The position numbers and the translations under genes are program-made. A stretch of DNA of 64,000 nt from Treponemataceae bacterium. GTDB lineage: Bacteria > Spirochaetota > Spirochaetia > Treponematales > Rectinemataceae. Under the pieces are notes generated by a model. That model did no database searches and was not told where the DNA came from. It saw nothing but the letters and a program-made list of their open reading frames with translations. Each line of letters starts with the position of its first letter. Positions within the stretch are counted from its first letter, which is position 1. Positions 8,594 to 48,446 of the stretch are shown piece by piece. The stretch is taken from assembly GCA_963667725.2 (NCBI GenBank), contig CAXXHO010000003.1, forward strand, positions 640,001-704,000, given 5' to 3'.

Positions 8594-9793
8594 TCAGAGC
8601 CCCAGTGCGCGTGACGCGCCGCGTTCCATGGCATTCTTAAGCATAGCCGCCGGATTCTTGAATTTTCCCAGGATGATCATCGCGGCGATTATGTAGGGCT
8701 TGTAGCTCGCTTCCCTGTAGGTGTCGTCGCGATAGCGGTCAAAGACGGAGGCGGCCACTTCGCCCGCCTTGCAGGATACGTCGGTGATGTCGGCTGGCAG
8801 GCAGTGCATGTACAGCGCCTTGCCGTCCTTCGTCAGCTTCATCTTCTCTTCCGTGCACTCCCAGTCCTTGAACTTCGCGTTGTTCGCGAGGCAGCTCTTC
8901 TCGAGATCCTTCAGGCCCGCCTGGTCGCCTGCGTGGAGGAGGGGAACGCGCTTCTGCATCACGTCGTAGGGAGCCCAGCTCTTCGGATAGACGATGTCGG
9001 CGCCGGCGAAGGCAGCGTCCATCGAGTGCCCGACGGTGAGGAGGCCGCCGGAAGCCTCGGCCTGGTCTCTCGAGAGCTGGACGACCTCGGGGATGAGCTC
9101 GTAGCCTTCAGGGTAGGCGAGGGCGATGTCCATGCCGAAGCGGCTCGCGAGGCCGATGATGCCCTGGGGCACGGAGAGGGGCTTGCCGTAGGAAGGCGAA
9201 TAGGCCCAGGACATGGCGATCTTCTTGCCCTTGAGCTTGTCGATCCCGCCGAAATAGTGGGCCAGATGGAGGAAATCGGCCATGGACTGGGTGGGATGGT
9301 CTATGTCGGACTGGAGGTTGACGACGGTGGGCCTGGAGGGAAGGACCCCCGCCGCGACGCCTTCGTCGAGGGCTTTCGCCACCTCGCGCTGGTACTTGTC
9401 ACCTTCGCCGAGGTACATATCGTCGCGTATGCCGATCGCCTCGGTGAGGAAGCTGATCATATTGGCTGTCTCGCGCACCGTCTCGCCGTGGGCGATCTGG
9501 CTCTTGCCCTCATCCAGGTCCTGGATGTAGAGGCCGAGAAGGTCGCAAGCCGACGCGTAGGAGAAGCGGGTGCGCGTCGAGTTGTCGCGGAAGTTGGAGA
9601 CGGCTATGCCCGAGTCCCAAATCCTGGGGCTGATGTTGTTGTCCCTCATCCCGCGCAGGATGTCGGCTACGAGAAAAGTGGCGTCCAGTTCATCCCTGGT
9701 TTTCTCCCAGGTGAGAAAGAAGTCCTTGCCAGCCATGTCGGTCCGCTTGGCGGCGAGATCCTTGATGGCCTTGACGATCGCGTTCTTGTCCAT
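8594..9793 (-). CDS. ygeW: Knotted carbamoyltransferase YgeW
   Basis: FRDNSTRTRFS, HGETVRETANMISF, DHPTQ, SWAYSPSYGKPLSVPQG, MHCLPAD; GGAGG RBS before ATG 9793. Confidence 0.93.
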   Translation of the reverse strand: MDKNAIVKAIKDLAAKRTDMAGKDFFLTWEKTRDELDATFLVADILRGMRDNNISPRIWDSGIAVSNFRDNSTRTRFSYASACDLLGLYIQDLDEGKSQIAHGETVRETANMISFLTEAIGIRDDMYLGEGDKYQREVAKALDEGVAAGVLPSRPTVVNLQSDIDHPTQSMADFLHLAHYFGGIDKLKGKKIAMSWAYSPSYGKPLSVPQGIIGLASRFGMDIALAYPEGYELIPEVVQLSRDQAEASGGLLTVGHSMDAAFAGADIVYPKSWAPYDVMQKRVPLLHAGDQAGLKDLEKSCLANNAKFKDWECTEEKMKLTKDGKALYMHCLPADITDVSCKAGEVAASVFDRYRDDTYREASYKPYIIAAMIILGKFKNPAAMLKNAMERGASRALGL

Positions 9794-9815
9794 AATTCCT
9801 CCGGATTGCGAGATT

Positions 9816-11102
9816 TTAAACGAAGCCGAGCAGTCTCGGTATGAAGAGCGAGATCTCGGGTATGTAGGCGACAATGAACAAGGCCAGCACCTCCATGATG
9901 ATGAAGGGTAAAATTGCCTTGGACAAGCGGGCCAGGCTGATTTTGGATATGGAACAGGCCACGAAGAGGCAGGCTCCAACGGGCGGCGTCATGAGGGCGA
10001 TGTTGAGCGACAGCACCATGATGATGCCGAAGTGTATGGGCGCAATGCCCATGCTTACGGCGATGGGATGAAGTATGGGGCCGAGAATGATGAGGGCGGC
10101 GGCTATGTCCATGAACATGCCGACGATAAGCATCAATATGATGATCATAAGGAGAATCAGTTTAGGATTCCCCGTGGTGGCGATGAGGAAGGCCGCTATC
10201 GCCTGGGGCACCTGATTGATGGCCAATACCCAGCTGAGAATCGACGCGGCGCCTATGATGAGGAATACCGAGCCTGTAATCTTGGCCGTCTTCAGGAGCA
10301 TCGGAAGGAGATCCCTGAAGGTGATGGATTTCAGGACGAAGAATCCGATCACGAGGGCATAGAGGACGGCGATCGAGGCAGCCTCCGTCGGCGTGAAGAG
10401 GCCTGAGAGTATGCCCCCGAGGATGATGATGGGCATAAGGAGGGGTATGATCGCATCCTTGGTGGCGAAGAGTTTCTGCCTGAAGGTCGTCTTCGGACCC
10501 TTGGGATATCCGCGTTTGTAGGACAGGTATGCCGACATGATCATGAGGAGGATGGCGAGGACGATGCCCGGCAGGAAGCCGGCGGCGAAAAGTCCCGCGA
10601 TCGATACGTTCATAAGCGAGCCGTAGATGACCATCATGTTGGAGGGTGGGATCGTGGGACCGATGATGGAAGAGGCCGCCGTGACCGCCGCAGAAAAATC
10701 GACATCGTAGCCGTCGTCGACCATCGCGGGAATCAGCATCGTGCCGATGGCCGCCGTATCCGACACGGCCGCTCCTGTCATCCCCGCGAAAAATACCGAG
10801 GCTATGATGTTGGCGTGGGCGAGTCCTCCCCTCCAGTGTCCGACGAGGACATTGGAGAAATTGACGAGGCGCTTCGTGATTCCGGCCTTGTTCATCAGCT
10901 CTCCGGCCAGGATGAAAAAGGGCATGGCCATGAGGGTGAACATGTCGAGGCCAGAAAAGTACTGGAGAGGCGCCATCGAGAGAAGCCCGACGCCCGAACC
11001 CATGAGAAGGAGCCCGACGACGCCCGCGATTCCGAGCGTGAAGCCGATGGGGATCCCTAGGACGAGGAGGGCAAAAAATACGACCGCGACCGATAGGAAC
11101 AT
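9816..11102 (-). CDS. dctM: TRAP transporter large permease DctM
   Basis: AMPFFILAGELM, IGPTIPPS, FTPTEA, TPPVG. Confidence 0.92.
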   Translation of the reverse strand: MFLSVAVVFFALLVLGIPIGFTLGIAGVVGLLLMGSGVGLLSMAPLQYFSGLDMFTLMAMPFFILAGELMNKAGITKRLVNFSNVLVGHWRGGLAHANIIASVFFAGMTGAAVSDTAAIGTMLIPAMVDDGYDVDFSAAVTAASSIIGPTIPPSNMMVIYGSLMNVSIAGLFAAGFLPGIVLAILLMIMSAYLSYKRGYPKGPKTTFRQKLFATKDAIIPLLMPIIILGGILSGLFTPTEAASIAVLYALVIGFFVLKSITFRDLLPMLLKTAKITGSVFLIIGAASILSWVLAINQVPQAIAAFLIATTGNPKLILLMIIILMLIVGMFMDIAAALIILGPILHPIAVSMGIAPIHFGIIMVLSLNIALMTPPVGACLFVACSISKISLARLSKAILPFIIMEVLALFIVAYIPEISLFIPRLLGFV

Positions 11103-11113
11103 CTCTTCCCTCC

Positions 11114-11650
11114 TCAGATGTCGATGTAGCCGGCGGCCTGGATGCGCCTGCCGTCGGGGCTCTGGAGAACCATGATGGAAACGAAGATGATCTGCAGAGC
11201 GGAAATCCCCATGGCTACGGGAACGGCCAGTCTGGGGATGAACATGGAAATGCCGAGAGCCTGTGTCATCTGCGTTCGGGCTTCGAGCGTGGCGCTAAGC
11301 GAGTAGAAGAACATGAACAGAAGAAAGGCTAGCACAAAGGCGTTTATAAGCAGCGCCATGGCCTTCCGGGCGTTCGTCTTCTTAAGCCCGTCGAGTATGA
11401 CCGTGAGCCCCACATGCTCCCCTGCGCTGATCCCCAGGCTTATAGCGAGGGATGCGCCCCAGATCATGAGGTACCGCGAGGTTTCTTCCACCCAATTCAA
11501 GGGGGCGTTGAGGACATAGCGAAAGAAAACTCCCAGGATGACGATGACTGTCATGGCGCCGAAAAGAAGGGCGCAGGCAAACCCAGTTCCCTTATCGATG
11601 GCGGCCGAGAGCGATTCGGCAGTCGTGAAGCCTGGCTTGCTTTCTGTCAT
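11114..11650 (-). CDS. dctQ: TRAP transporter small permease DctQ
   Basis: VFFRYV...WVEE.SRYLMIW, four TM segments; lies between dctP and dctM. Confidence 0.9.
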   Translation of the reverse strand: MTESKPGFTTAESLSAAIDKGTGFACALLFGAMTVIVILGVFFRYVLNAPLNWVEETSRYLMIWGASLAISLGISAGEHVGLTVILDGLKKTNARKAMALLINAFVLAFLLFMFFYSLSATLEARTQMTQALGISMFIPRLAVPVAMGISALQIIFVSIMVLQSPDGRRIQAAGYIDI

Positions 11651-11754
11651 GGTTTTCCTCCCGCGAGCGGCGCAGCCGCCGAAGGGAGGGGCAGCCGCGC
11701 GAAGGCGGCAACCCCTCCTGATTGGATCGGCATTAAGTATTTTTAGGCTATGGA

Positions 11755-12789
11755 TCAGTAGCCGAGTTCTTTCTCGGCCTTTTCGATGGCCGCGAAGAAT
11801 TTGTCGACGAGAGCCTCGCCCTCTTTCTTGTACTGGGCGCTCATGAATTCCCTGGCAGCGGGGATGGCGACGTCGCGGAACTGCTTCATTTCGGCCTTGG
11901 TGGGAACGTAGACCTGCATCTTCTCGGCGAGGGTGGGAAGTCCTTTGTCCGAACCGTCGATAATCCTCGAGAGACCGCGTCCGGCGAGGAGGGCGGTTCT
12001 GGCCGCGTCATCGATGACGTTCTGGAGGTCGGCGGAGAGCCCGGCATAGAATTTGGGATTGATTACCCAGATATAGGGGGCATAGAGATGGTTGGTGAGG
12101 GTGATGTATTTCTGGACTTCCTGGAACTTGGCCATGGTGATGATGGAGATGGGGTTCATCTGTCCGTCGACCACGCCGGTCTGGAGGCTGGTGTATACTT
12201 CTGCCCACGCCACGGTGGTGGGAGAAGCGCCCAACGCCTTGACGATGGCCTGGTGGAGGGGGAGGGCCATGGTGCGGAGTTTTATGCCCTTCATGTCGGC
12301 TGGCGATTTTATGGGGCGCTTGCCGTTGGTGATGGCGAAGAAGCCGCCGGATTCGCCGAATCCAAGCACCTTGAATCCCGCTTTCTTCTCGATGTCGGCC
12401 GCGAGTTCCTTACCGAAATCCCCGTCGTACACTTTATAGCCGACATTATAGCTCGAGAAGGCGAAAGGCATGTTGGTGACGTCGATGAGGGGATAGAACT
12501 GGGCCATGCCGCCTGAGGAAGAGATGAAGGACTGGACGACGCCGGCCTTCACCTGGACCATGGTCTCGGCTTCCTTGCCGAGAACGCCGTTCGGGAAGAT
12601 ATCGACCTTGATCTGACCGTTGGAATTGGCTTCTACTTCGCTCTTGAACACGGCCGCCATGGCCGCCGACGCGACGTCGAAGGGCTGCTGGGGGTTGAGA
12701 TGGGCGAGCTTGAGGACGGTCTGTCCGAATACCGCAGCGGGCATAAGCGCCGCGATGACGAGAACGATCGCTAGAATCCTGCTTTTCAT
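11755..12789 (-). CDS. dctP: TRAP transporter substrate-binding protein DctP
   Basis: Signal peptide, DMKGIKLRT, EVYTSLQTGVVDGQMNP; GGAGG RBS before ATG 12789. Confidence 0.9.
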   Translation of the reverse strand: MKSRILAIVLVIAALMPAAVFGQTVLKLAHLNPQQPFDVASAAMAAVFKSEVEANSNGQIKVDIFPNGVLGKEAETMVQVKAGVVQSFISSSGGMAQFYPLIDVTNMPFAFSSYNVGYKVYDGDFGKELAADIEKKAGFKVLGFGESGGFFAITNGKRPIKSPADMKGIKLRTMALPLHQAIVKALGASPTTVAWAEVYTSLQTGVVDGQMNPISIITMAKFQEVQKYITLTNHLYAPYIWVINPKFYAGLSADLQNVIDDAARTALLAGRGLSRIIDGSDKGLPTLAEKMQVYVPTKAEMKQFRDVAIPAAREFMSAQYKKEGEALVDKFFAAIEKAEKELGY

Positions 12790-12926: not shown

Positions 12927-15794
12927 CTATAAGCGGCCCAGAGCGTGAAGCACCCGCTCCGGCGAGAAGGGCCATTCCCTCACCCAGGCGCCGACGGCGT
13001 CGTGGATGGCGATCGATATCGCCGGGGCTGCGCCATTTACCGATATCTCCGAGACGCTCTTGGCGCCGAAAGGACCGATTTCATCCTCCACGGGCATGAG
13101 TTCGACGCGGAAATCAGGCGGCACCTCGGCGATGGTCGGTATCTTGTAGTCGAGGAAACGAGGATTGAGGCAGCGGCCTTCGCCGTCGTAGAGCATTTCC
13201 TCATAGAGCGAATGGCCTATGGCCTTGAGGATGGCTCCGTACACCTGCCCTGTCGCGAGGGCTGGGTTGATGGGGGTGCCGCAGTCCTGATAGGCGTGGT
13301 AGCGCTGGACCTTCAACTCGCCCGTGCGCTCGTTGACGGCGACCTGGACGAAATGCGCGCCGTAGGGAAAGGCCGAGTGGTCGGTCTTGAAGCTTCCGAA
13401 TCCCGATAGTTCGCCGTGGCCTTCGCCCTGGACGGAGCGGTGGCCGAGCTCGGCGAGGCTGATTTTGCCCTTCTTGCCGACTACCATGCCCTTGTATTCG
13501 ATATGGAGGTCTTCAGGGGCCTCTCCGAGGATGGGCGTGGCGGCTTCGAACACTCGCCGCCTCAGGTTCTCGGCGGCCTTAAGGGCAGCGTTGCCGGAGA
13601 AATAGGTGCCAGAGGAGGCGTAGGCGCCCTTGTCGAAGGGGGTGATGTCGGTGTCGCCGGAGACCACCGTGACGTCGGTCAGGTCGAGGCCGAGGATCTC
13701 GGCGGCGGCCTTGGCGGTGACGGTGTCGAGGCCCGTGCCGAGGTCGGCCCCGCCCGAGAGCATGAGGAGGGTGCCGTCGGAGAGAAGGCGCACTTCGGCG
13801 TTGGCGGCGTCGAGGCCGGGAAGGCCTGAGCCCTGCTGGATGATGACAGCCCCGCGGCCGATCTTCCAGTCAGATCCCGGGGCGGGCGGCTTGGGTTGGT
13901 CCCAGCCGAAGGCTTGGCGGCCGCGCGCCATCATGTCGCCCAGGCCGCATTTTCCCAGCGTGACGGCGGCGCCTTCACGGCCCTCGCCGAGGCTTTTCAG
14001 GATGTCGATGCGGCTGCCTGAACGCACGCGGTTCTTTTCGAGGAAATCGAGCTGGTCCATGCCGAGGGCGCAGGCCATCTCGGCGAGGGCCGTCTGCAGA
14101 GCGAAGGAACCTTTCGGGGCGCCATAGCCCTGGTAGGCTCCCGCCGGCGAGAGGTTCGTGTACCAGGATTTCACCTCGAAGCGCGCGTTGTCGCAGAGAA
14201 GGAGTGGCAGGCTCTTCGAGATCGCGTTCATGGGCACGGTGAGGCAGTGCTGGCCGTAGGGGCCGGTGTCGGCGTCGAGATTCATGAGGATGGCGGTGAG
14301 TTTGCCGTCGCGCCTGGCGCCCAGCTTCACCTTGATCTCCATGGCGTGACGTGTCCGGCTCGCGATGAATTCCTCTTCTCTTGTATAGCGGAAATAGACA
14401 GGCCGCCGCGTCGTCCAGGCGAGATAGCCCGCGATGTCCTCGACGACGATGTCCTGCTTGGCGCCGAAGCCGCCGCCGACCCTTTCCTTGATCACGCGCA
14501 CCTTATTCTCCGAGATGCCGACGGCCCGGGCGACGATGCGCCGCACATGCCAAGGCACCTGGGTCGAGGCGTGGAGGACGAGACGGCCCGCCTCGATCTT
14601 CGCGAAGACGACATGGGGCTCCATGGGCGTGCACTGCACCCTGTTGGTTTTATAGCTTCGTTCGATGACGATGTCGGCAGCGGCGAAACCCGCCTCCATG
14701 TCGCCAATGCCGCCCGAGGCCGAAGCCGCGAGGTTGCGGTGCGGGTCGGAGTGCAGGGGGAATTGGTAGACGACAGGATCGTCGCGGCCGTCGCCTCTCG
14801 TGTCCGTGCCTACAGGAGGCGAACCGGCGACATAGGATACTTCGCCCGAGTGGATGACGGGCGCTTCATTCGCCTTGGCCTGCGCTATCGAGAAGACGGG
14901 CGGAAGGACCTCGTAGGTCACCTTTATAGCCGCGAGGGCGGCCGCGGCGATTTCAGGCGTTTCGGCGAGAACGGCGGCGACTCTGTCGCCGACATGGCGC
15001 ATCTTGCGCGGGAACATGCGCTGATCGTAGGGGGAGGGTTCGGGGAAGCCCTGGCCAGCTGTGGTGTACACCCGCTCTGGTGTATTCTTGTGAGTGAGGA
15101 CGGCAACGACGCCGGGCATGGCTTCGGCTTCCGCCGTGTCGATGGAAGCGATCCAGGCATGGGCATAGGGGCTTCCGAGGACTTTCAGGACGCAGGCGTC
15201 GCCCGTGACCCTATCCTCGACGAAGGCGCGCTCGCCCCGGCTCAAGGTTTCGGCGTCAACCTTCTCGCGATCCTTGCCCACATGGCGGAGGTCAGGCCTG
15301 AATTCGGGTCCGAGGGGCGGCGCGTAGCCTGGTTCAGAGAGACGCCGGGCGGCGAGGCGCACGGCCTCGAAATACTGCTTATAGCCGGTGCAGCGGCAGA
15401 GGGTGCCCGAAAGGGCGTCGGCGACTTCCGCGTCGGAAGGCTCGGGCGATCGAGCGAGGAGCTCACGTATGGAGAGGGCGACGGCCGGCGTGCAGTATCC
15501 GCACTGGACGCAAGCGCAATCGATGAGGGCGCGCTGGATGGTCCGAAGGGTCGCGTCCTTGTTGTAGTAGTCGATGGTGACGACCTCGCGGCCATCGGCC
15601 TCGAGGGCGAGAATGAGGCAGGAATTGACGAGCTTGCCGTCGAGGAGAAGGGCGCAGAGGCCGCAGGAGCCTTCGCCGTCGCAGCCGTTCCTCAGCGAGA
15701 CGATTCCCGCGCGGCGCAGCAGGGTTTTAAGGCTTTCGCCGGGTTCGCAGGCAAGGGCGACGGGACGGCCGTTGAGCGTGAATGTCGTGGTCAT
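12927..15794 (-). CDS. xdhD: Molybdopterin oxidoreductase, fused 2Fe-2S + Mo-binding subunit (XdhD/YgfN type)
   Basis: GCDGEGSCGLC, QCGYCTP, CRCTGY, GQGFPEPSPYD, STQVPWH, GGGFGAKQ, AYQGYGAPKG, GAKSVSEI; 955 aa; downstream of ygfM. Confidence 0.88.
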   Translation of the reverse strand: MTTTFTLNGRPVALACEPGESLKTLLRRAGIVSLRNGCDGEGSCGLCALLLDGKLVNSCLILALEADGREVVTIDYYNKDATLRTIQRALIDCACVQCGYCTPAVALSIRELLARSPEPSDAEVADALSGTLCRCTGYKQYFEAVRLAARRLSEPGYAPPLGPEFRPDLRHVGKDREKVDAETLSRGERAFVEDRVTGDACVLKVLGSPYAHAWIASIDTAEAEAMPGVVAVLTHKNTPERVYTTAGQGFPEPSPYDQRMFPRKMRHVGDRVAAVLAETPEIAAAALAAIKVTYEVLPPVFSIAQAKANEAPVIHSGEVSYVAGSPPVGTDTRGDGRDDPVVYQFPLHSDPHRNLAASASGGIGDMEAGFAAADIVIERSYKTNRVQCTPMEPHVVFAKIEAGRLVLHASTQVPWHVRRIVARAVGISENKVRVIKERVGGGFGAKQDIVVEDIAGYLAWTTRRPVYFRYTREEEFIASRTRHAMEIKVKLGARRDGKLTAILMNLDADTGPYGQHCLTVPMNAISKSLPLLLCDNARFEVKSWYTNLSPAGAYQGYGAPKGSFALQTALAEMACALGMDQLDFLEKNRVRSGSRIDILKSLGEGREGAAVTLGKCGLGDMMARGRQAFGWDQPKPPAPGSDWKIGRGAVIIQQGSGLPGLDAANAEVRLLSDGTLLMLSGGADLGTGLDTVTAKAAAEILGLDLTDVTVVSGDTDITPFDKGAYASSGTYFSGNAALKAAENLRRRVFEAATPILGEAPEDLHIEYKGMVVGKKGKISLAELGHRSVQGEGHGELSGFGSFKTDHSAFPYGAHFVQVAVNERTGELKVQRYHAYQDCGTPINPALATGQVYGAILKAIGHSLYEEMLYDGEGRCLNPRFLDYKIPTIAEVPPDFRVELMPVEDEIGPFGAKSVSEISVNGAAPAISIAIHDAVGAWVREWPFSPERVLHALGRL

Positions 15795-16615
15795 AAGGAG
15801 GCCTCCAGCGAGAAAAGCACATCGGCGAGAAGGGCGGCCGCCCTGAGGCGCTTGAAAGCCGCGCTGCCCCTAACGTCGTCGACGGGAGCGAAGAGGGGAG
15901 CGGCGGCTGCTTCGATCACGGCCTTGTCCGCCAGCGGCCTGCCTTCGAAGAGGCTTTCCAGTTCGGGGAAGCGGCGCGCGTGGGGCGAAAGTCCGCCCAT
16001 GGCGATTCGCAGGCCGCGCAGGGCTGGCCTTCCGTGGCTTGCGCCACTCCCGTCACTCAGTTCGGCCGAGACCGCGCAGGTGAGAACGGCCACGTCGCAG
16101 GAGGTGCGGGAGTAGCGTCCGACGGCGAAGCGGCGCGACGCGGGCAGCTCGAATTCGATGCCGGCGATCAGTCCTTTTTCGGCAGGGGAGGCAGTCTGCC
16201 ATTCCGCCGCCGTTAGGGCAGGGGCCTGGGCGCGGCTGTAGCGCGCTTCGGCCACGAGGAGGAAGGGCAGGAGGCTGGAGCAGGATTTGTCGGCGCCTAT
16301 GTTGCCGCCTATCGTCGCTCTGTTGCGGATATTCCTGTCGGCCATGCTGAGGGCCGCCTCGCGCAGCGCGGCTGGAAGCAAGGCGGAATCGGCGATGGCC
16401 TGGAAGGTCGCGCCTGCGCCTATGATAATCCTGTCGCCATGACGCTCGATTCCCTTCGGGAGGAGGTCAGTGATCGCGATCGCGGTCATAGGGCGCCAGG
16501 CGAATTGGGATGTCAGGAGCCAGGTGCCGCCAGCCAGGAGGACGGCGCCATCTTCGTTCGAGAGGAGTTCGAGCGCTTCCCCGGCGGTTTTCGGCCTGAA
16601 ATATGCTTTTACCAT
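15791..16615 (-). CDS. ygfM: FAD-binding subunit of molybdenum hydroxylase (YgfM type)
   Basis: YFRPKT, LAGGT, IRNRATIGGN, DDVRGSAAFK; ATG 16615 after GAGGA; overlaps the xdhD start. Confidence 0.8.
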   Translation of the reverse strand: MVKAYFRPKTAGEALELLSNEDGAVLLAGGTWLLTSQFAWRPMTAIAITDLLPKGIERHGDRIIIGAGATFQAIADSALLPAALREAALSMADRNIRNRATIGGNIGADKSCSSLLPFLLVAEARYSRAQAPALTAAEWQTASPAEKGLIAGIEFELPASRRFAVGRYSRTSCDVAVLTCAVSAELSDGSGASHGRPALRGLRIAMGGLSPHARRFPELESLFEGRPLADKAVIEAAAAPLFAPVDDVRGSAAFKRLRAAALLADVLFSLEASL

Positions 16616-19512: not shown

Positions 19513-19731
19513 CGGCGGCTCCTTTGAAACGCATGATGGAAAACCGCAAGCGGTGAGAACTGCCCGCGGCTCGAATAGTATACGACGCATTCCGGAAATT
19601 TTACAGGGCAATTTCCTCGCTGTTGGAGCTGTGCCTTCCTAAGGTTCGACAGATACTTCCGAACCGTCGATATCGAAGTGGTAGCTTCTATACCCTGAGT
19701 TCTTTCTGGTCATGAGCATGGCTGGTGGCTA

Positions 19732-19760
19732 TTTACATATATATTGGCAAATGCTAATAT
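19732..19760 (+). promoter_or_regulatory. Promoter with palindromic operator (island site A)
   Basis: TTTACA-N17-TAATAT overlapping ATATTG-GCAAATGC-TAATAT (19741-19760). Confidence 0.6.
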
Positions 19761-19786
19761 CAATACAATTATTAAGAGGCTCTACA

Positions 19787-20224: not shown

Positions 20225-20237
20225 TGGAAGAACCTGC

Positions 20238-20738: not shown

Positions 20739-20774
20739 GACCAAGGCTCCTTTATGCGTCATCGATGATGCGGT

Positions 20775-21767: not shown

Positions 21768-21779
21768 GTCCTGGCCTGT

Positions 21780-21995: not shown

Positions 21996-22069
21996 ATATA
22001 CCTCCGAGCGGCTAAAGATACTGAGCGCGTCAACGACGCACATCACACATGTTCGGCATCACCTAATAC

Positions 22070-22494: not shown

Positions 22495-22504
22495 AGTGTC
22501 TCCT

Positions 22505-40168: not shown

Positions 40169-41763
40169 GGGAACAGCTCCTTCGCGATGCCGTCGGCGCC
40201 GAAGAGGCGGATGAAATGGGCCAGCATGAGCCTGCCCGTCATCCGCCTCCGGTAGGAAGCCGAGCCGCGAACGTCGCCGATGGGCGAGATTTCGGCTTCG
40301 GCGGCCGAGCCGACCTCCCTGGCGAGTCTGGCCAGAGCCTTCGCGTCATTCCTGTCGATCGCCGCTCCTTCCAGCGCCGCCGAAGCCTTCCTCAGCAGCG
40401 TCGGAACGGCGGCGACGCCGCCGGCGCTTATCCTGACTCCGCGCGCGAAGCCCTCCTCGACGCGGAAAGAGATGGCCGTATTGACCGCCGCGATATCGAG
40501 TCTTTCCCTTTTCGCGATCTTCTCGAAGGAAAACAGAAGCCTTGGTTTTGTTCCTGGAACGCCCGATTGGCCGCCTGATTCATCGTGGCTTATCAGCCCG
40601 TCCGGGATCAGAATAGCACGTATGATCTCGTTTTTCCGGAGTGCCGTCGTCTTATAGCCAGTGAAAAAATCCTCGATGGGAATTAACCGCGATCCGGCTT
40701 CAGCCCCCGCGGTCGCGCCGGTGTACCCGCCCGATGGAGCTGCGTACCCGCCGATTTCCAGCCTCGCCCCCAGAGCCATCAGCATCGAGGTGATGTCCCC
40801 CACGGGCGAAGCGTTGGCGATATTGCCCCCTACGGTGGCGATATTCCTGATCAGCGTGCTAGCGAACTGCCCTTCATAGGCATCAATGCCAGGGATGGCT
40901 TCCCGCACCGGCATCGAGGCGAAAAAATCGCGCAGGGTGACGGCGGCGCCTATCCTCAGCCATGGAGAACCGTCCAAATTTGTTCGGGCTATTTTCCTGA
41001 AATCATCGATCGAGCGGAGGCGGAGAGGCCTGAAATCGCCGGCCGGATAGGGATTTTTGACATAGTAGTCGGTTCCGCCGCCCAAGGCGATGAAGTCGGT
41101 CGCCCCCTGCGAGTCGGCTGCCGCGGACAGGCCTGCCGCCTCCGCCATAAACACGAGGACGGAACGTGGCAGCACGCTTTTCTCCACGAGCACCTTCAGC
41201 CGCTCCATGGGGTCCCGCGGCAGTTCTCCGAACTCCCTCGCGAGGCGCTCGGCAGCTCTCCTTATGGCGCCATACCCGGTGCATCGGCACAGGTTGCCAT
41301 CCGCGGCGATCATGGCTCCCGCCAAATCCGGCTTGCCCGGACCCGCAAGCCAGGCGCTCAGGCTGACAATGAAACCAGGGCTGCAGAATCCGCACTGGCT
41401 CGCGTTCTCCTCCAGAAAGGCCCGCATCACGGGAGTCAGTCCCCCCGGCGCCGAAGCGCTCAAACCTTCGATCGTTACTAGGTGTTTCCCGGCGAGATCG
41501 CCCAGCGACAGAAGGCAGGAGGGTACAGCCAGGTATCGCGGCGCGCCTCCGTTGCAGTCGCCTCCGCCCGCGGCGCCTCCGCAGCAGCCGTCAACAACGA
41601 ATTCCCCCACCAGCACGGCGCAGGCGCCGCAGTCGCCCTCCCTGCAGCCTTCCTTCGTTCCCGTCAGGCCCATCTCCCCTCGTATGAAATCGAGAGCGGG
41701 CGTGCCGGGTCCCGTCTTCGGTTCGACCCATGTGTCATTCACGAATATCCTGAACGTTTCCAT
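40165..41763 (-). CDS. xdhA: Xanthine dehydrogenase small subunit (2x[2Fe-2S] + FAD)
   Basis: GTKEGCREGDCGAC, QCGFCSPG, GNLCRCTGY, GGGTD, IRNIATVGGNIANASPVGD, DVRGSASYR. Confidence 0.9.
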   Translation of the reverse strand: METFRIFVNDTWVEPKTGPGTPALDFIRGEMGLTGTKEGCREGDCGACAVLVGEFVVDGCCGGAAGGGDCNGGAPRYLAVPSCLLSLGDLAGKHLVTIEGLSASAPGGLTPVMRAFLEENASQCGFCSPGFIVSLSAWLAGPGKPDLAGAMIAADGNLCRCTGYGAIRRAAERLAREFGELPRDPMERLKVLVEKSVLPRSVLVFMAEAAGLSAAADSQGATDFIALGGGTDYYVKNPYPAGDFRPLRLRSIDDFRKIARTNLDGSPWLRIGAAVTLRDFFASMPVREAIPGIDAYEGQFASTLIRNIATVGGNIANASPVGDITSMLMALGARLEIGGYAAPSGGYTGATAGAEAGSRLIPIEDFFTGYKTTALRKNEIIRAILIPDGLISHDESGGQSGVPGTKPRLLFSFEKIAKRERLDIAAVNTAISFRVEEGFARGVRISAGGVAAVPTLLRKASAALEGAAIDRNDAKALARLAREVGSAAEAEISPIGDVRGSASYRRRMTGRLMLAHFIRLFGADGIAKELFP

Positions 41764-41788: not shown

Positions 41789-43513
41789 TTATTCTCGCTC
41801 ATTCACATAGAGATCCACCGGCGCGAAGCGGTCCACGTCGATAAGCCCCACATCAGTGATCTTGAGACTAGAGATCACGGGCAGGGCCATGAAAGAAAGG
41901 GTCATCAGCGGCGAATGGTTCGTCAAGCCTTCGCGGATGAATATTCCCTCGAAAGCGCGAAGCCTCTCGATGACGAAGTCGGCGTTTTGATCGCTCATGA
42001 GGCCGGCTACAGGAAGCGGGAGATCGAGGATTATGTCGTTGCCCACGGCATAGACGAGACCGCCCTTTATCTTGTTGAGGTGCCGGGCCGCCTTGAAAAT
42101 GGAGGTGTTGTCCACGCCAGCGATGATCATGTTGTGCGAGTCGTGGCTGATCGTGCCGCCGATGGCGCCGCGCTTCAGGCCGAGCCCCTTTATGAAACCC
42201 TTGCCGATCCGCCCCGAGCCGATGTGACGCTCGATGACGAATATCTTGATGAGGTCCCGATCCGGATCGGAGACGCATTCGCCGTTCCTTACCGTCGGCT
42301 TTTCCACGAGATGGCCGGTGATGATGGAATCCTGCCTGGCCTCGATGACGCGGATCTTCTTGCCTTGGTCGGGGATGACGAAATCCCCCGCCGTAAGCCA
42401 CTTGATGTTTACCGAGTCCCGGAGCGAAACCTGACGCGGCGGGAAATTTTCCAGGAGAACGCCGTTTTCGGCGATGAGGCGGCCGCGCTTGAACACCATC
42501 TCAGCCCTGAAATCCTCGAATGAGGAAAAAGCGACGAAATCGGCCTTGCATCCCGGCGCGATCACGCCGATGTCTTTCATCCCGAACCATTGGGCGGGGT
42601 TGGCCGCCGCTATCCTGAAGGCGTCCACGGGCGCCACGCCCCCCGCGAGGAGAAGCCTGAGCGCGTGGTCCATGTGACCTTCGTCGCGCAGGTCGTTGGA
42701 ATGCCTGTCGTCCGAGCAGATCATGAATCTGGATATCGAGGAAGGCGTTATGGCAGGGATGAGATGACCCAGGTCGCGGGCCGTCGAGCCCTCCCTGAGC
42801 ATGATGTACATGCCCTTGGACAGCTTTTCCGCCGCTTCCGCGGGCGTTGTGCACTCGTGATCCGAGCCGATTCCGGCCAGTATGTACGCCGAGAGAGCCG
42901 CCCCCGAAAGCCCTGGTGCGTGTCCGTCCACGGGTTTTCGAGCGTTCGTGAAGAGGGCGATCTTGTCCATGAGACGCTGCTCGCGCGCCAGGACGCCCGG
43001 GTAATTCATCACTTCGCCCAGGCCGAGAACCCGCTTGTCCTGGAGAAAAGGGTACATGTCGGAAGCGTAGAGCGCGGCGCCGGCCGTATCGAACTCGGTG
43101 GCCGGCACGCAGGACGGGACCATGAAGAAAATATCGAGGGGAAGGTTGTCCGAGGCCGCCAGCATGAAGCGCATGCCGTCGTAGCCCATGACGTTGACGA
43201 TTTCGTGAGGATCGGCCACCACCGTCGTGGTGCCGTGGGGCAGGACGACGCGGGAATATTCTGCCGGGGTGAGCAGCGACGATTCGATATGGACATGGGC
43301 ATCCACGAGACCCGGGGCGAGGAATTTTCCGCCCAGATCGATCTCGGCCCTGGCTTCGAGACCGTCGTTCACGCCGACGATCCTGCCGCTGCGAACCGAT
43401 ACCGTGGCCTTCGCGATGAAGGTCCCGCCGAGCACGTCGACGATCGTGCAGTTTCTGATGTTGAGGTCGCACGGAACCTTTCCGGCCGCGGTATCGATTA
43501 GGTCTTTGTTCAT
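41789..43513 (-). CDS. ade: Adenine deaminase
   Basis: DAHVHIESS, DPHEI.NV, GEVMN, DGHAP, DHEC, REGS, SDDRH, SHDSHN. Confidence 0.94.
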   Translation of the reverse strand: MNKDLIDTAAGKVPCDLNIRNCTIVDVLGGTFIAKATVSVRSGRIVGVNDGLEARAEIDLGGKFLAPGLVDAHVHIESSLLTPAEYSRVVLPHGTTTVVADPHEIVNVMGYDGMRFMLAASDNLPLDIFFMVPSCVPATEFDTAGAALYASDMYPFLQDKRVLGLGEVMNYPGVLAREQRLMDKIALFTNARKPVDGHAPGLSGAALSAYILAGIGSDHECTTPAEAAEKLSKGMYIMLREGSTARDLGHLIPAITPSSISRFMICSDDRHSNDLRDEGHMDHALRLLLAGGVAPVDAFRIAAANPAQWFGMKDIGVIAPGCKADFVAFSSFEDFRAEMVFKRGRLIAENGVLLENFPPRQVSLRDSVNIKWLTAGDFVIPDQGKKIRVIEARQDSIITGHLVEKPTVRNGECVSDPDRDLIKIFVIERHIGSGRIGKGFIKGLGLKRGAIGGTISHDSHNMIIAGVDNTSIFKAARHLNKIKGGLVYAVGNDIILDLPLPVAGLMSDQNADFVIERLRAFEGIFIREGLTNHSPLMTLSFMALPVISSLKITDVGLIDVDRFAPVDLYVNERE

Positions 43514-43650: not shown

Positions 43651-44604
43651 CTACTTGTCTTCCCTCATATAGGCCTTGCTTAAGGCGGCGGGCGCCCCGA
43701 TCTTCTTCGACAGAGCCTCCCACCAGGTCATGAGCACGAGCACGGCGATCGTCCCCAGATAGGGGAGCATATTGAGGAAGGCGGCGGGGATGTTGGTGCC
43801 CGAAGCCTGGAGCCTGAACTGGACGGCGTTGATTCCGCCGAAAAGCAGGGCGCCCCAGATCGAGCGCGCCGGATTCCACATCGAGAAGATTACGAGGGCC
43901 ACGACGATCCATCCCCGGCCGCCCGTGATGTTCTCGGACCAGCCCGGCGTGTAGGAGAGCGAGAGGTGAGCGCCTCCCAAACCCATGAGGGCGCCCCCAA
44001 GGATCGTGTAGAGATACTTGGACTTGATGACGTCGATGCCCATGGCGTCGGCTGTCTGCGGGTCCTCCCCGATGGAGCGGAGCCACAGGCCGGGCCGCGT
44101 CTTGTAGAGGTAGAACCAGGAAATCGGTATGAGAAGGTAGACGGCATAGGTCAGGATGTCCTGGCTGAAGAGGGCCCCGAGTATGGGAACCTCGGCGACG
44201 GCTTCGAGCTTCAGGGGCGTGAATTTCGCGGCCTTCAGTCCCATGAGGCGCAGGCTGTTGGAGGCCGGTCCCAGGCGCTGGCCGAGGAAGCTCGAGAAGC
44301 CCGTGCCGAAAAGCGTGATCGAGAGGCCGGAGACTACCTGGTTCGCGCGCATAGTCACGGTGAGAAAGGCATGGACCGTCGCCATGGCCGCGCCTACGGC
44401 CGCGGCCACGAGGAGGGCGACCACGAGATTCTGGCTGTAGAAGGAAGCCGCGAAACTCGTCACCGCGCCCATGAGCATGATGCCCTCGATGCCCAGGTTG
44501 AGGATTCCCGCCCGCTCGGTCAGAATCTCGCCAATAGTGGCGAAGATGAGGCTCGTGCCCGCCCTCACCGTGATCGCGAGAATCGAAGTGATAAGGTCCA
44601 TCAC
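43651..44604 (-). CDS. Nucleoside/purine ABC permease
   Basis: GEILTERAGILNLGIEG, ANQVVSG, GRGWI, MLPYL, PAAL. Confidence 0.9.
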   Translation of the reverse strand: MMDLITSILAITVRAGTSLIFATIGEILTERAGILNLGIEGIMLMGAVTSFAASFYSQNLVVALLVAAAVGAAMATVHAFLTVTMRANQVVSGLSITLFGTGFSSFLGQRLGPASNSLRLMGLKAAKFTPLKLEAVAEVPILGALFSQDILTYAVYLLIPISWFYLYKTRPGLWLRSIGEDPQTADAMGIDVIKSKYLYTILGGALMGLGGAHLSLSYTPGWSENITGGRGWIVVALVIFSMWNPARSIWGALLFGGINAVQFRLQASGTNIPAAFLNMLPYLGTIAVLVLMTWWEALSKKIGAPAALSKAYMREDK

Positions 44605-45701
44605 GCTTCTCCTTCGACGCAGGCGTCCCTCTGGCCTCGCTTGCCGCGCCCAATTCTCTTTATCCTGTACTCGGTGAAAAGGGAGCCGGCCAGCATGGGG
44701 AAGAGGATGAGGCCCTGCATCACTGTGCCCATGGCGGAAGGCAGTCCCATCATGAGCTGGACCTGGTCGCCGCCGACGAGGATGCCTCCCATAAGCAGGG
44801 CGACGAAGGGAATGGCGATGGGGTTCAGCTGGGACATCCAGGCGATGATGATGGCCGTGAAGCCGTAGCCCAGGTTGAGCCCCTGCTGGAGCCGGTGCGA
44901 GATGCCCGTCACCTCGCAGGCGCCGGCCAGGCCGCAGAATGCTCCCGAAAGGATGACGGCGAGGAAGATATTGCGCTTCACCGCTATGCCCTGATATCGC
45001 GCGGCCTTGGGGCTAGCCCCTATGATCGTCAGCTCGAAGCCCCAGCGCGTCCGTTTGATCACGATCCAGAGAATGACGGCGAGGACGAGAGCGAAGTAGA
45101 TGCCGACGTGCGCCCGCCCGAACAGCCTCGGCAGCCATGCCGTCTCGGGGAAGGGCGCCGAACCCGGGAATCCGTAGCCCTTGGGATCGCGCCAGGGGCC
45201 GTAGTAGAGGTATTCTGCGAAGAGAATCGCCACATAGTTGAGCATCAGGGTGACGAGGGTCTCGTCCACGTTGAGTCTCGTCTTGAGGAAGGCGGGAATG
45301 CTCGCCCAGAGCGCTCCTCCTACGCAGCCGACGATGAGGCAGGCAGGGAGGACGAGGGAGGGAGGAAGACCCGCGCTTTGGAACAGGGCCACCCAGGCCG
45401 CCGCGATGCCGCCGAGCATCAGCTGTCCTTCGGCGCCGATATTCCAGAACTTGAGCTTGAAGGCGAGGGCGACGCCCAGGCCTGTCAGCATCAGGGGAAT
45501 GGCCTTTACGAGGGTTTCCGAAAAGCCGTTGGCCGAACCGAAGGCTCCCTGGAACATCGCGGCGAAGGTCGTGAATGGATTCGTGCGGAAGATGAATAGA
45601 ACCAGGCCCGTCAGGATCAGCGAAACCATGAAGGACGCCGCCGGCACCACGAAAAGAGCCGTCCTGGATATGGATTTTCGTTTTTCGAAGACTATTTTCA
45701 T
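44601..45701 (-). CDS. Nucleoside/purine ABC permease
   Basis: WNIGAEGQ, TLMLNYVA, GYGFTAI. Confidence 0.9.
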   Translation of the reverse strand: MKIVFEKRKSISRTALFVVPAASFMVSLILTGLVLFIFRTNPFTTFAAMFQGAFGSANGFSETLVKAIPLMLTGLGVALAFKLKFWNIGAEGQLMLGGIAAAWVALFQSAGLPPSLVLPACLIVGCVGGALWASIPAFLKTRLNVDETLVTLMLNYVAILFAEYLYYGPWRDPKGYGFPGSAPFPETAWLPRLFGRAHVGIYFALVLAVILWIVIKRTRWGFELTIIGASPKAARYQGIAVKRNIFLAVILSGAFCGLAGACEVTGISHRLQQGLNLGYGFTAIIIAWMSQLNPIAIPFVALLMGGILVGGDQVQLMMGLPSAMGTVMQGLILFPMLAGSLFTEYRIKRIGRGKRGQRDACVEGEA

Positions 45702-47260
45702 TATAGGCTCCCCTCGCGTTCCGCCGCTTTTCCCTTCGATTCGGGATCGACGCCCGCCATGAGGAGGCCTAGCGTCTCGGACTCAGCCTCGGCCGCCGGC
45801 AGCAGATCCATGATCCTTCCCTCGAACATGACCGCGATGGTGTCGGCCACCTGAAGCAGCTCGTCGATATCCTCAGAGACGAAGAGCACGCCCAGGCCCT
45901 GGTCACGCTGCGCCACGAGCTGCCTCCGCACCGATTCCGTGGCCCCGATGTCGAGGCCGCGGGAAGGGTAGACGGCGACGAGGAGATTTTTGCACGCGCC
46001 GATCTCCCTCGCGAGGATGGTCTTCTGGATGTTTCCGCCTGAGAGGAATTTCACCTGCGTCTCGGGGCTCGGCGTCATGATCTTAAAGGATTCAATCAGT
46101 TTTCTGGCCATCGAGGCTATGCGCCCGGGCAGCAGGAAAATGCCCGTCGAGAGGGGAGGCTTTCTGTAGCTCTTCATGGCCAGGTTCGAGGCCACGCTCA
46201 TCTCGCCCACGGCCCCTACCGAGGAGCGGTCCTGGGGAATATGGGCGACGCCGGCCCTGATCACCGAGATGGGCGAGGCGTTGGTGACGTCCTTGTTCCC
46301 GACGCTTACCTTGCCCGCGGTGAGGCGCCGCAGTCCGGTGATGACTTCGGCCAGCTCCCGCTGTCCGTTGCCCGCGACGCCTGCTATGCCGACGATCTCG
46401 CCCGAACGGATATTCAGGTCCACTTCCCTCAAGGCCGGCAGGCCCCTGTCATCCTTCGCCGAGACTTTTTCGAGACGCAGGATGACGTCTCCGGGAGAAA
46501 AAGGTTTCTTCTCCAGCTCGAAGAGGATTTCGCGTCCGACCATGAGCCTGGCCAGTTCGGCGGGGCTCGTCCCGGCCGTGGTCACGCCCGCCACCACCTT
46601 TCCGCGCCGCAGGACCATGACCCTGTCGGAGAAGGTCATCACCTCCTCCATCTTGTGGGTGATGAAGACGGCCGATTTCCCCTCGGCGCGCATGAGATGG
46701 ATCACCTTGCTCAGCTCGGCCGACTCCTGAGGCGTCAGGATGGCCGTAGGTTCGTCGAGGATGAGGATCTCGGCCTTGCGGTAGAGAAGCTTGAGGATTT
46801 CCACGCGCTGCTGCTCGCCCACCGAAAGCTGCCAAATCGAGGCTTCGGGGTCGACGCGGAGGTTGTATTTTTCCGAGAGCGCCTCGACTTCCTTCCTCAC
46901 TCGCTTCATGTCCGGGACGAGGGGCTGATCGCGCATCCCCAGGATGATGTTCTCCAGTACCGTCATCGAATCGACGAGCTTGAAGTTCTGGTGGACCATT
47001 CCGATGCCCAAATCCTGAGAATCCTTGGGGCCGCCTATCGAGACGGGCTTGCCCCTGACGAGGATTTCCCCCGAATCCGGCCTGTACAGCCCGCAGAGAA
47101 TATTCATAAGCGTGCTTTTGCCCGCCCCGTTTTCGCCTAGGAGGGCCAGGACTTCTCCAGGAAAAAGCTCCAGGTCGACGCAATCGTTCGCCTGGACGCC
47201 AGGGAAGGACTTGGAGACCGCTCTCATCTCGACGAGGGGCTGCCTGCTGTTTTTTTCCAT
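45701..47260 (-). CDS. Nucleoside/purine ABC ATP-binding protein (two NBDs)
   Basis: GENGAGKST, LSVGEQQRVE, LDEPT, GVAGNGQ, LSGGNIQK. Confidence 0.92.
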   Translation of the reverse strand: MEKNSRQPLVEMRAVSKSFPGVQANDCVDLELFPGEVLALLGENGAGKSTLMNILCGLYRPDSGEILVRGKPVSIGGPKDSQDLGIGMVHQNFKLVDSMTVLENIILGMRDQPLVPDMKRVRKEVEALSEKYNLRVDPEASIWQLSVGEQQRVEILKLLYRKAEILILDEPTAILTPQESAELSKVIHLMRAEGKSAVFITHKMEEVMTFSDRVMVLRRGKVVAGVTTAGTSPAELARLMVGREILFELEKKPFSPGDVILRLEKVSAKDDRGLPALREVDLNIRSGEIVGIAGVAGNGQRELAEVITGLRRLTAGKVSVGNKDVTNASPISVIRAGVAHIPQDRSSVGAVGEMSVASNLAMKSYRKPPLSTGIFLLPGRIASMARKLIESFKIMTPSPETQVKFLSGGNIQKTILAREIGACKNLLVAVYPSRGLDIGATESVRRQLVAQRDQGLGVLFVSEDIDELLQVADTIAVMFEGRIMDLLPAAEAESETLGLLMAGVDPESKGKAAEREGSL

Positions 47261-47321
47261 CTGAACTTGCCTTGATTTCCGGATTCTTGAAGGGATTTTT
47301 ATTTTAGATGCTTAAGATTAC

Positions 47322-47357
47322 AAAAAAAGCCGCCCGGGTCCAGGACCCAGGCAGCTC
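47322..47357 (-). terminator. Terminator/attenuator hairpin after the BMP gene
   Basis: Minus strand AGCTGCCTGGGTC-CTG-GACCCGGGCGGCT followed by a T-run. Confidence 0.75.
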
Positions 47358-47372
47358 TTTTCAGATCGACGA

Positions 47373-48446
47373 TTACTGAACCTTTCCGACCACGCCTTCG
47401 ACGAACCAATCCATCGAAGCCTGTTTGCCGTCGGGCACAACCTGTCCCGCGGCGTAGACCACTTTTCCGTCCTGACCCTTGAGGGGGCCGGTGAAGATGG
47501 ACCAACCGCCGAGAATCTTTTTCTGCGCGTTCTCGACTTCCTTTTTCACGCTGGCGGGAACCTTCGCGCTGATGTCGGAAATCTTGACGACCTTGTCCTT
47601 GAGTCCGCCCCAGTATTCGTGGCTTTTCCAGGTGCCGTTCAGGGCGTTCTGGATGGTGTCGGTCAGGTAGGTGCTCCACTCCCAGACGGCGCTGGCGAGA
47701 ACGGAATCGCCCACGAATTTGCCCATGTCGGAGTCGTAGCCGATGGAGAGCTTCCCGCGTTCCTGGGCAGCCTTCTGGGGCTCGGTGGTGTCCTGGTGCT
47801 GGGCGATGATGTCGGCGCCGGAATCGAGGAGGGCGACGGCCGCCTCGCGTTCTTTCACGGGGTCATACCAAGTATTGGTCCAGACGACCTTGACCTGGGC
47901 CTTGGGATTGACCGAGCGGACGCCGAGGGTGAATCCGTTGATGCCGCGCACGACCTCGGGAATGGGGAAGGCGGCGACGTAGCCGATGACGTTGGATTTG
48001 GTCATGCGGCCGGCGATGATGCCGGTTAGGTAGCGAGCTTCCTCGATGCGGCCGAAATAGGTGGCCATATTGGGAGCGGTTTTATAGCCCGAGCAGTGCT
48101 CGAATTTGACGTTGGGGAATTCCTTGGCCACGGCGAGCGTCGGATCCATATAGCCGAAGCTGGTGGTGAAGATCATGTCGAAACCGGCCATCGCGTACTG
48201 GCGGATGACGCGCTCGGCGTCGGGGCCTTCGGGGACGTTTTCTATATATTTAGTCTCGATCTGGCTGCCGAATTTCTTCTCGACGGCCAGGCGGCCGCGG
48301 TCCTGCTCATAGGTCCAGCCCATGTCTCCGGGAGGGCCAATGTACACGAAGGCGATCTTAAGCGGTTTTTTTGCCTGGGCGGCCATGGGGGCTACCAGGG
48401 AAAATGTCATGGCCAAAACCATGAGTCCAAGGATCAGCTTTTTCAT
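47373..48446 (-). CDS. BMP-family purine/nucleoside-binding protein
   Basis: FVYIGP..D.GW, TSFGYMD, PIPEVVRGIN.F, WYDP, QHQD; GGAGGAG RBS before ATG 48446. Confidence 0.9.
   Translation of the reverse strand: MKKLILGLMVLAMTFSLVAPMAAQAKKPLKIAFVYIGPPGDMGWTYEQDRGRLAVEKKFGSQIETKYIENVPEGPDAERVIRQYAMAGFDMIFTTSFGYMDPTLAVAKEFPNVKFEHCSGYKTAPNMATYFGRIEEARYLTGIIAGRMTKSNVIGYVAAFPIPEVVRGINGFTLGVRSVNPKAQVKVVWTNTWYDPVKEREAAVALLDSGADIIAQHQDTTEPQKAAQERGKLSIGYDSDMGKFVGDSVLASAVWEWSTYLTDTIQNALNGTWKSHEYWGGLKDKVVKISDISAKVPASVKKEVENAQKKILGGWSIFTGPLKGQDGKVVYAAGQVVPDGKQASMDWFVEGVVGKVQ

Follow-up and report, generated by a model that had tools for sequence, protein, structure and literature searches.

An oxygen-independent urate degradation locus in a free-living spirochaete with candidate replacements for HyuA and YgeX

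Introduction

The reductive route of urate breakdown, or 2,8-dioxopurine pathway, of Escherichia coli and Clostridium sporogenes was solved in gut bacteria in 2025 (PMC12507026; 10.1101/2025.04.24.650524; main texts as available). Here we describe a 64,000-nucleotide stretch (hereafter the window; C3:640001-704000) from the 4.2-Mb genome of a Treponemataceae bacterium of the Rectinemataceae (GCA_963667725.2; completeness 97%, contamination 6.3%), a free-living spirochaete that keeps the core of this oxygen-free uric acid breakdown route. Two of its steps, those of the ring opener HyuA and of the diaminopropionate ammonia-lyase YgeX (DpaL), appear to be carried out by other enzymes: an allantoinase-like amidohydrolase, and a pair of pyridoxal 5'-phosphate (PLP) enzymes of which one has the threonine synthase fold (ThrC-like) and the other, of 485 residues, the cysteine synthase fold.

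Variation in the pathway has been described before. In the available text of Li et al. (PMC12507026) other enzyme swaps (UacX, UacY and an F420 enzyme) are reported and YgeX is scored by PF00291; as that is the whole family, the PLP enzymes of this window would count as YgeX. The survey in the Kasahara preprint, as far as its available text goes, requires dpaL and hydA at >25% identity, and would thus miss genomes like this one. An unlinked carbamate kinase was recorded in 3/39 strains, with C. sporogenes and Collinsella named, by Liu et al. (10.1101/2025.04.24.650524), whose available text also proposes that the E. coli intermediates are R/D; the stereochemistry of the pathway is listed as an open question in the part available of Percudani (PMC12990295).

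Results

HyuA and YgeX Were Not Found Genome-Wide

Families were called with NCBIfam profiles (paired figures are bit score/cut-off). A preliminary description of this DNA, made from its letters and open reading frames, had named xdhD, ygfM, ygfK, ssnA, ygeW and ygeY, together with ade, xdhAB, an 8-oxoguanine-deaminase-like gene and two uptake systems. All six core genes proved to be genuine minus-strand open reading frames, and all but ygfM scored above cut-off. The additional genes were present on the same strand (xdhA and xdhB being assigned below cut-off), and the uptake systems are a BMP-type ATP-binding cassette (ABC) importer and a tripartite ATP-independent periplasmic (TRAP) transporter. 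We regard membership of the region in the core 2,8-dioxopurine pathway as highly probable. Judged by the 485-residue protein, the nearest relatives of the host are Rectinemataceae and Spirochaetaceae metagenome-assembled genomes (78–84% identity).

That the window contains no hyuA, ygeX or carbamate kinase, and that three further enzymes are embedded among its pathway genes, was borne out, the three being the amidohydrolase and the two PLP enzymes introduced above. When the search was extended to the whole genome, the best YgeX/DpaL candidate reached 24/532 bits against TIGR03528 (E = 1.4e-5), with no tblastn match at 1e-8, and the best match to HyuA (TIGR02033, 212/393) was the window's own allantoinase-like gene, so that neither canonical gene was found elsewhere. 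A carbamate kinase above cut-off was found standing alone at C3:206728, indicating that the kinase step has been relocated and not replaced. The proposal of a rewired pathway is supported for the HyuA and YgeX steps, where the distributions are complementary (see below), and falls for carbamate kinase. The genome search also located yqeB, yqeC and mocA outside the window, the first two together with selD on C5 and mocA at C3:627919.

An Allantoinase-Like Enzyme Is the Likely Ring Opener

The amidohydrolase gene is the sole strong hydantoinase-family match of the genome, and its sole TIGR00857 match. Its product scored 233 bits against allantoinase, 206 against the L-selective hydantoinase 1gkr and at most 150 against D-hydantoinases, fell below the cut-off of the AllB model (336/358), and retains all metal ligands (HxH, K, H, H, D). 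A dihydroorotase role was ruled out by the presence of a separate PyrC.

Distribution was followed in 301 Spirochaetota genomes at least 90% complete, of which 44, including this one, were ssnA-positive and 257 lacked ssnA. Among the 43 other ssnA-positive genomes, D-hydantoinase (HyuA) was above cut-off in 29. An orthologue of the allantoinase-like gene (40–57% identity) was found in nine of the 14 genomes without HyuA and in none of the 29 with it; a tenth copy, in two pieces, was present in G044. Within the host's own family the orthologue occurred in 10/12 genomes. It is likely, on this sequence evidence, that the allantoinase-like enzyme replaces HyuA and would open ureidomethylhydantoin to 2,3-diureidopropionate.

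Two PLP Enzymes Occur Where YgeX Is Lacking

A DpaL-family gene was found in 25 of the same 43 genomes (22/25 above the strict cut-off), and a ThrC-like orthologue (39–68% identity, one partial) in exactly the other 18, all DpaL-less; ThrC-like matches at 34–36%, which is the level of ordinary ThrC, were left out of this count. By family, DpaL was seen in three and the ThrC-like gene in six, with zero overlap (Fisher p = 0.012, kin not being independent). The gene for the 485-residue enzyme was present in 20/301 Spirochaetota, namely the host, 16/18 DpaL-less genomes, 2/25 DpaL-positive genomes and 1/257 genomes without ssnA (19/44 ssnA-positive vs. 1/257 others), and its apparent absence from G036 and G355 coincides with contig ends.

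The pairing was then followed across phyla in 50 of 80 genomes with a homologue of the 485-residue enzyme, picked for long contigs and varied taxa. A ThrC-like gene was found in 47/50; 35 of the 50 had been in the ThrC-like profile, and 12/15 of the others also matched. Two archaeal genomes among the 50 have a ThrC-like neighbor at 29–30% identity. At 1e-70, ssnA was found in 39/50. A neighborhood survey took in 160 loci around either PLP gene, and no YgeX was found in their flanks. Loci of at least 7 kb around the PLP genes held a core pathway gene in 40/67 and 31/43 cases. That the PLP pair replaces YgeX, by one route or another, we consider likely.

Another account would take the amidohydrolase for a genuine allantoinase or dihydroorotase and the PLP genes for an ordinary ThrC and CysK, leaving the pathway incomplete; in its favor, database names read "threonine synthase" and allantoinase is the top match of the amidohydrolase. 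We judge this to be extremely unlikely, as all three proteins fall below equivalog cut-offs and their distributions are tied to ssnA, and as the genome yielded no 2-oxo-4-hydroxy-4-carboxy-5-ureidoimidazoline decarboxylase and no AllC above cut-off and has PyrC separately. Judged from their sequences, a CysK and a ThrC-type protein of the long form are also encoded elsewhere in the genome.

In two Hodarchaeota (Asgard archaea; L067, L068) the 485-residue enzyme is 55–56% identical and its gene lies beside a divergent ThrC-like gene, with ssnA-like genes present. At L072, L110, L131 and L134 a DNA polymerase III alpha-like gene adjoins the PLP pair, and at all of these but L110 the pair has no other late-pathway gene beside it. 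At five loci (L036, L039, L040, L080, L114) carbamate kinase and the PLP genes are accompanied by two carbamoyltransferases, one of the two in L036 being aspartate transcarbamylase-like.

Active-Site Features of the Two PLP Enzymes

Predicted models of the two enzymes had predicted local distance difference test (pLDDT) values of 91 and 94, and Atlas matches were to PALP clusters only. The ThrC-like enzyme has an N-terminal CxxC pair and an invariant PLP lysine, Lys108. Its model matched short-type ThrC (2zsj, 1uim) with a query-normalized TM-score (TMq) of 0.78 at 33–35% identity, and its TIGR00260 score (152.7/167.1) was below even this broad, fold-level cut-off. In the Thermus thermophilus threonine synthase, Thr88, Lys116, Asn154, Ser155 and Arg160 are residues that we take to form the substrate-phosphate site. 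In alignment with 1uim, Arg160 was replaced by Thr or Met in 42/42 sequences and Thr88 by Ala in 42/42 (Thr207 and Ala135 here), suggesting that the ThrC-like enzyme does not keep the phosphate site of a threonine synthase. Its Arg199, Lys211, Asp235 and Asp291 are invariant.

The 485-residue enzyme has a CysK/CBS core with long N- and C-terminal extensions and scored 80/351 against the CysK/CysM family. Its own family is conserved at 56–84% identity across bacteria and archaea, with K107, STGN, Q209 and H288-R289-E291-D295 invariant in 76/76 sequences. The motif HRIEGIGD was best matched by HRIEGISD232 of Fn1055, the three cysteine synthases aligned with it reading HxIQGIGA; Asp295 aligned with Asp232 of Fn1055, and the wild-type Fn1055 chain outscored the D232N chain. 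Fn1055 forms serine and H2S from cysteine in a beta-replacement, and Asp232 is key for its cysteine specificity (PMC12940168, available text). A quick tree built from PLP fold-type II proteins gave the 485-residue family a long stem with good support and grouped neither family with YgeX; owing to long branches, it did not place the ThrC-like family relative to other ThrC paralogues.

A route can be proposed for the whole region. By analogy with the orthologues of E. coli and Clostridium, purines would enter via the ABC importer and be brought to urate by Ade and XdhAB, plus the deaminase for oxidized aminopurines. XdhD-YgfM would reduce urate to 2,8-dioxopurine, from which YgfK and SsnA would produce ureidomethylhydantoin; after opening of the hydantoin ring by the allantoinase-like enzyme, YgeW and YgeY would strip the two ureido groups, with carbamoyl phosphate passing to the unlinked carbamate kinase to yield ATP. 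The 485-residue enzyme may then let water displace the 3-amino group of diaminopropionate, giving serine and ammonia, as Fn1055 does for the cysteine thiol, and the ThrC-fold enzyme may convert serine to pyruvate and ammonia by elimination, a role assigned to it because the genome was found without SdaA. For these last two steps the argument is one of distribution and motifs, and we put the conversion of diaminopropionate to serine and then to pyruvate by this pair at roughly even odds (about 0.5).

Betaproteobacterial Neighbors Suggest a Possible Serine Route

In four betaproteobacterial loci (L019, L022, L023, L024) the two PLP genes stand in a module of a regulator, a TRAP transporter 53–57% identical to that of the window, an M20 carbamoylase, an N-carbamoyl-D-amino-acid hydrolase (453 bits), the ThrC-like gene, the gene for the 485-residue enzyme and, co-oriented right after the pair, an L-serine ammonia-lyase above cut-off (2804-12831 in L019). 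Both carbamoylases were also seen at L017, and part of the D-carbamoylase at L018. At 1e-70, ssnA was found in none of these six genomes, which may be incomplete. Read most simply, the module would take up 2,3-diureidopropionate, remove both ureido groups and pass diaminopropionate to serine and on to pyruvate, making the operon a candidate scavenging route for 2,3-diureidopropionate.

The presence of both D- and L-type carbamoylases also allows for another reading, in which both work on the C2 position, the 3-ureido group stays in place, and one PLP enzyme acts on albizziin, displacing urea to form serine or pyruvate and bypassing YgeY. Plant cysteine synthases make albizziin, and the 485-residue enzyme has large conserved extensions. 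However, ygeW and ygeY are kept here and beside the pair in many loci, so that diaminopropionate would still be produced and would have to be consumed, and we find this reading improbable.

Two actinobacterial loci (L036, L039) contain in addition an aminotransferase, a glyoxylate/hydroxypyruvate reductase and a glutamate dehydrogenase. Assimilation of the C3 unit might also be considered, the pair replacing the amino group by sulfide to form cysteine or by phosphate to form phosphoserine, as CysK and ThrC folds and the invariant basic residues of the ThrC-like site would permit. But no SerC match was found in 80 loci, the SerA-like matches were only three actinobacterial reductases, serA-serC of the host lie ~500 kb away, and the serine deaminase neighbor points to breakdown; we rate assimilation as very unlikely.

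A more serious contender leaves free serine out altogether. The ThrC-fold enzyme alone would be a stereospecific diaminopropionate ammonia-lyase, with the 485-residue enzyme a racemase or a lyase for the other enantiomer. The ThrC-like gene exactly complements DpaL (18 vs. 25 genomes) and overlaps the ygeY stop, its invariant Asp235 and Asp291 could bind the 3-amino group, and the gene for the 485-residue enzyme pairs either with the ThrC-like gene or with a divergent DpaL (G161, G012). The ring opener groups with L-selective hydantoinases, and both enantiomers may therefore arise. What this account leaves unexplained is the Fn1055-type motif, and the serine deaminase that follows the pair in four loci, and we think it unlikely, if worth keeping in view.

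A number of observations weigh against the serine route, or against a strict exclusion of YgeX by the pair. The Fn1055 motif match is local (24.9 bits, E = 2e-4), and the available text of PMC12940168 links Asp232 with the choice of cysteine as substrate and not with the activation of water. Arg199 and Lys211 of the ThrC-like enzyme could still bind phosphate or another anion. A serine dehydratase adjoins the pair in just 4/80 loci, all from related betaproteobacteria, the SDH_alpha family was found in only 32/50 genomes with the gene for the 485-residue enzyme, and SdaA was not found in the host genome, whose two SDH_alpha proteins had no NCBIfam match at 1e-25 and, we presume, resemble cysteine desulfidases. 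CysK-fold enzymes are known to be L-specific, which is a stereochemical mismatch with the R/D intermediates proposed for E. coli and with the betaproteobacterial D-carbamoylase; as to the hand of the intermediates, the L-clade ring opener and that D-carbamoylase pull opposite ways. With regard to distribution, 22/25 DpaL-positive spirochaetes belong to one family and are not independent as kin, and 2/25, both with a divergent DpaL, carry the gene for the 485-residue enzyme. Across phyla, a DpaL-family gene occurred in 9/50 genomes with that gene (eight at E < 1e-149); the PLP pairing is thus tight, but YgeX is not strictly excluded. Six of these dpaL genes were fetched, and five had no pathway gene within ~1.5 kb.

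Organization of the Locus

The preliminary description spoke of operons in the plural, which the comparison with relatives did not support. Six related loci (L015, L021, L026, L105, L108, L174) show one unbroken order, xdhB, allantoinase-like gene, ygfK, ssnA, ygeY, ThrC-like gene, 485-residue enzyme gene, deaminase, ygfM, xdhD and ygeW, and this ancestral operon is split in the window by an insert of ~10 kb that leaves the two PLP genes 10,188 bases apart. The insert consists of redox and Fe-S genes with no relation to the pathway (NifU, a flavin reductase, a radical SAM protein, MinD-ferredoxins, a peroxiredoxin, Mrp and DUF134) and has a GC content of 0.536 (flanks 0.62–0.64). Two same-genus genomes have only its DUF134-Mrp end, and have no TRAP genes at the corresponding place. 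A contig from a second study spans 19582-30402 and carries ~1.2 kb more, and a contig from a third study bridges 19004-20466; misassembly was therefore ruled out and the insert taken as real. An NAD(P)H-oxidase-like gene of the insert (~22156-23423) is seemingly in several short frames, the ~1.2 kb extra of another strain lying at 22580.

The ThrC-like gene overlaps the ygeY stop by 4 bases. Its product is 83–85% identical to same-genus orthologues, compared with 98% for ygeY and 96–97% for the 485-residue protein. Scans of the window for promoters and terminators gave counts not above those of shuffled sequence; one promoter-like site, TTGACA-17-TAGTAT, was seen at 48547-48519. A perfect hairpin, with an A-run on one side and a T-run on the other, lies at 29646-29683, between DUF134 (plus strand) and the ThrC-like gene (minus strand). 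It has the look of a two-way terminator and was seen in the sequence, not in the list from the terminator scan.

Features of the Window

The features of the locus are listed in Table 1, with E. coli comparisons made against K-12 proteins.

Table 1. Features of the urate degradation locus, in order along the window from right to left.
Feature	Position	Strand	Basis
BMP/PnrA-type substrate-binding protein of ABC importer, likely for purine bases/nucleosides	47373..48446	-	PF02608; closest solved 3s99, 6pi5 at ~354 bits
ABC ATPase and two permeases	43651..47260	-	profile matches
ade, adenine deaminase	41789..43513	-	TIGR01178 573/472.5
xdhA (Fe-S/FAD) and xdhB (Mo), Rhodobacter-type xanthine dehydrogenase	37904..41763	-	best matches TIGR02963, TIGR02965, below cut-off
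Allantoinase/L-hydantoinase-clade amidohydrolase, putative HyuA replacement	36540..37910	-	allantoinase 233 bits, metal ligands intact
ygfK, 2,8-dioxopurine reductase	33412..36555	-	TIGR03315 1007/835; 40% to E. coli YgfK
ssnA, ring-opening amidohydrolase	32069..33415	-	TIGR03314 471/455.5; 46% to E. coli SsnA
ygeY, ureido hydrolase	30858..32066	-	TIGR03526 487/321.5; 50% to E. coli YgeY
ThrC-like threonine-synthase-fold PLP enzyme, 386 aa, putative eliminase in place of YgeX	29701..30861	-	fold match ThrC
Redox/Fe-S insert	19612..29700	.	low GC, splits operon
Cysteine-synthase-fold PLP enzyme, 485 aa, putative diaminopropionate hydroxy-lyase forming serine	18055..19512	-	CysK/CBS fold
8-oxoguanine-deaminase-family enzyme	16700..18058	-	NF006055 604/532
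ygfM, FAD subunit	15791..16615	-	best match TIGR03312, below cut-off (113/241.5); 32% to E. coli YgfM
xdhD, urate to 2,8-dioxopurine reductase	12927..15794	-	TIGR03313 1183/1102; 51% to E. coli XdhD
TRAP transporter dctP-dctQ-dctM, putative uptake system for a late ureido acid	9816..12789	-	profile matches
ygeW, knotted carbamoyltransferase	8594..9793	-	TIGR03316 654/500; 64% to E. coli YgeW

The structures closest to the substrate-binding protein, 3s99 and 6pi5, are presumably ones with purine ligands. XdhA and XdhB scored 269/467 and 746/849.5, and the motifs GGGFGGKE, FRGFG and GEPP are present; XdhAB likely takes hypoxanthine to xanthine and urate, and the 8-oxoguanine-deaminase-family enzyme likely channels oxidized aminopurines into urate. 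Glu604 of XdhD is the counterpart of E. coli Glu606, which was proposed to orient urate (Li et al., PMC12507026, available text).

DctP homologues of at least 45% identity adjoin PLP genes in 12/160 loci, and the solved DctP structures compared gave no hint of the ligand. At one related locus (L103) TRAP genes (DctP 88%, DctM 93% identical) occupy the place that ygfM-xdhD have in the window, directly before ygeW. A transglutaminase-like gene (7101-8567) lies 26 bases after ygeW, a position kept in both same-genus genomes. Elsewhere in the host genome a guanine-deaminase-like gene (G000:C3:2207843-2209216) and an M20 carbamoylase gene (C3:2199110-2200381) are located near an ABC system and may feed or drain the same pathway. 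A separate minus-strand catabolic cluster at 55489-63038 (M20 peptidase, Lar_N, Ldh_2 dehydrogenase, altronate/galactarate dehydratase, GntR), accompanied by an FAA hydrolase gene on the plus strand, probably serves sugar-acid use.

Discussion

What is new here is the replacement enzymes: genomics reassigns two steps, and one specific new reaction is proposed. The core pathway is known. The preliminary description had placed this lineage outside the studied gut organisms. SsnA in Spirochaetota had already been noted in the available text of Li et al. (PMC12507026). For the replacement enzymes we found no description in the literature, subscription papers and supplements aside. The terms "threonine synthase", "cysteine synthase" and "allantoinase" are absent from the main texts of Liu et al. 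and Kasahara, and such variant clusters may be shown in the Li or bioRxiv supplements.

Among the spirochaetes sampled, the replacement form covers 6/9 ssnA-positive families besides the host's own, and we regard the variant as widespread. We tentatively suggest, at a little less than even chances, that many environmental anaerobes end the urate route with a serine-making diaminopropionate hydroxy-lyase and a ThrC-derived eliminase after an L-selective ring opener, and that the same pair, joined to the TRAP transporter and two carbamoylases, is a self-contained unit by which bacteria lacking the upper pathway live on 2,3-diureidopropionate that urate degraders release. If so, two large families now labeled threonine synthase and cysteine synthase would gain their real function, and the self-contained unit hints at cross-feeding, with an intermediate of urate breakdown as the shared food. 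The L-clade ring opener offers a direct handle on the stereochemistry of the pathway.

Compared with the E. coli and C. sporogenes pathway, the XdhD-YgfM, YgfK, SsnA, YgeW and YgeY orthologues of the window are 32–64% identical, and the Glu606 counterpart, YqeB, YqeC, MocA, SelD and a carbamate kinase are shared at the level of the genome. The window differs in having, instead of HyuA and YgeX, an allantoinase-clade hydrolase and two fold-type II PLP enzymes, in uptake by ABC and TRAP systems and not UacT/XanQ, and in the unlinked carbamate kinase. Like AllB and L-hydantoinase (3hm7, 3e74, 1gkr) and HyuA, to which it is 29% identical, the amidohydrolase is a binuclear cyclic amidohydrolase with all metal ligands, but it has MPCT and SDHAG in place of the MPLN and SDHS of allantoinases.

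The ThrC-like enzyme shares with short-type threonine synthases the PLP lysine and the residues matching Lys116, Phe134, Asp135 and Asn154, whereas its invariant RNTAYNPxTxEGKK, GDG and ADS stand against NSVNPxRxEGQK, GNA and ATA. With Fn1055, the Fusobacterium nucleatum cysteine (hydroxyl) lyase (5b53), the 485-residue enzyme has the CysK fold and the HRIEGIxD motif in common, but the overall match is weak (59 bits), it is 145 residues longer, and its proposed substrate is diaminopropionate in place of cysteine. Both PLP enzymes belong with YgeX/DpaL to PLP fold type II (PF00291) and would take the same place in the pathway; YgeX is 21% identical to the ThrC-like enzyme over 133 residues and has no BLAST match to the 485-residue enzyme, and both enzymes of the pair read STGN where DpaL reads TDGN.

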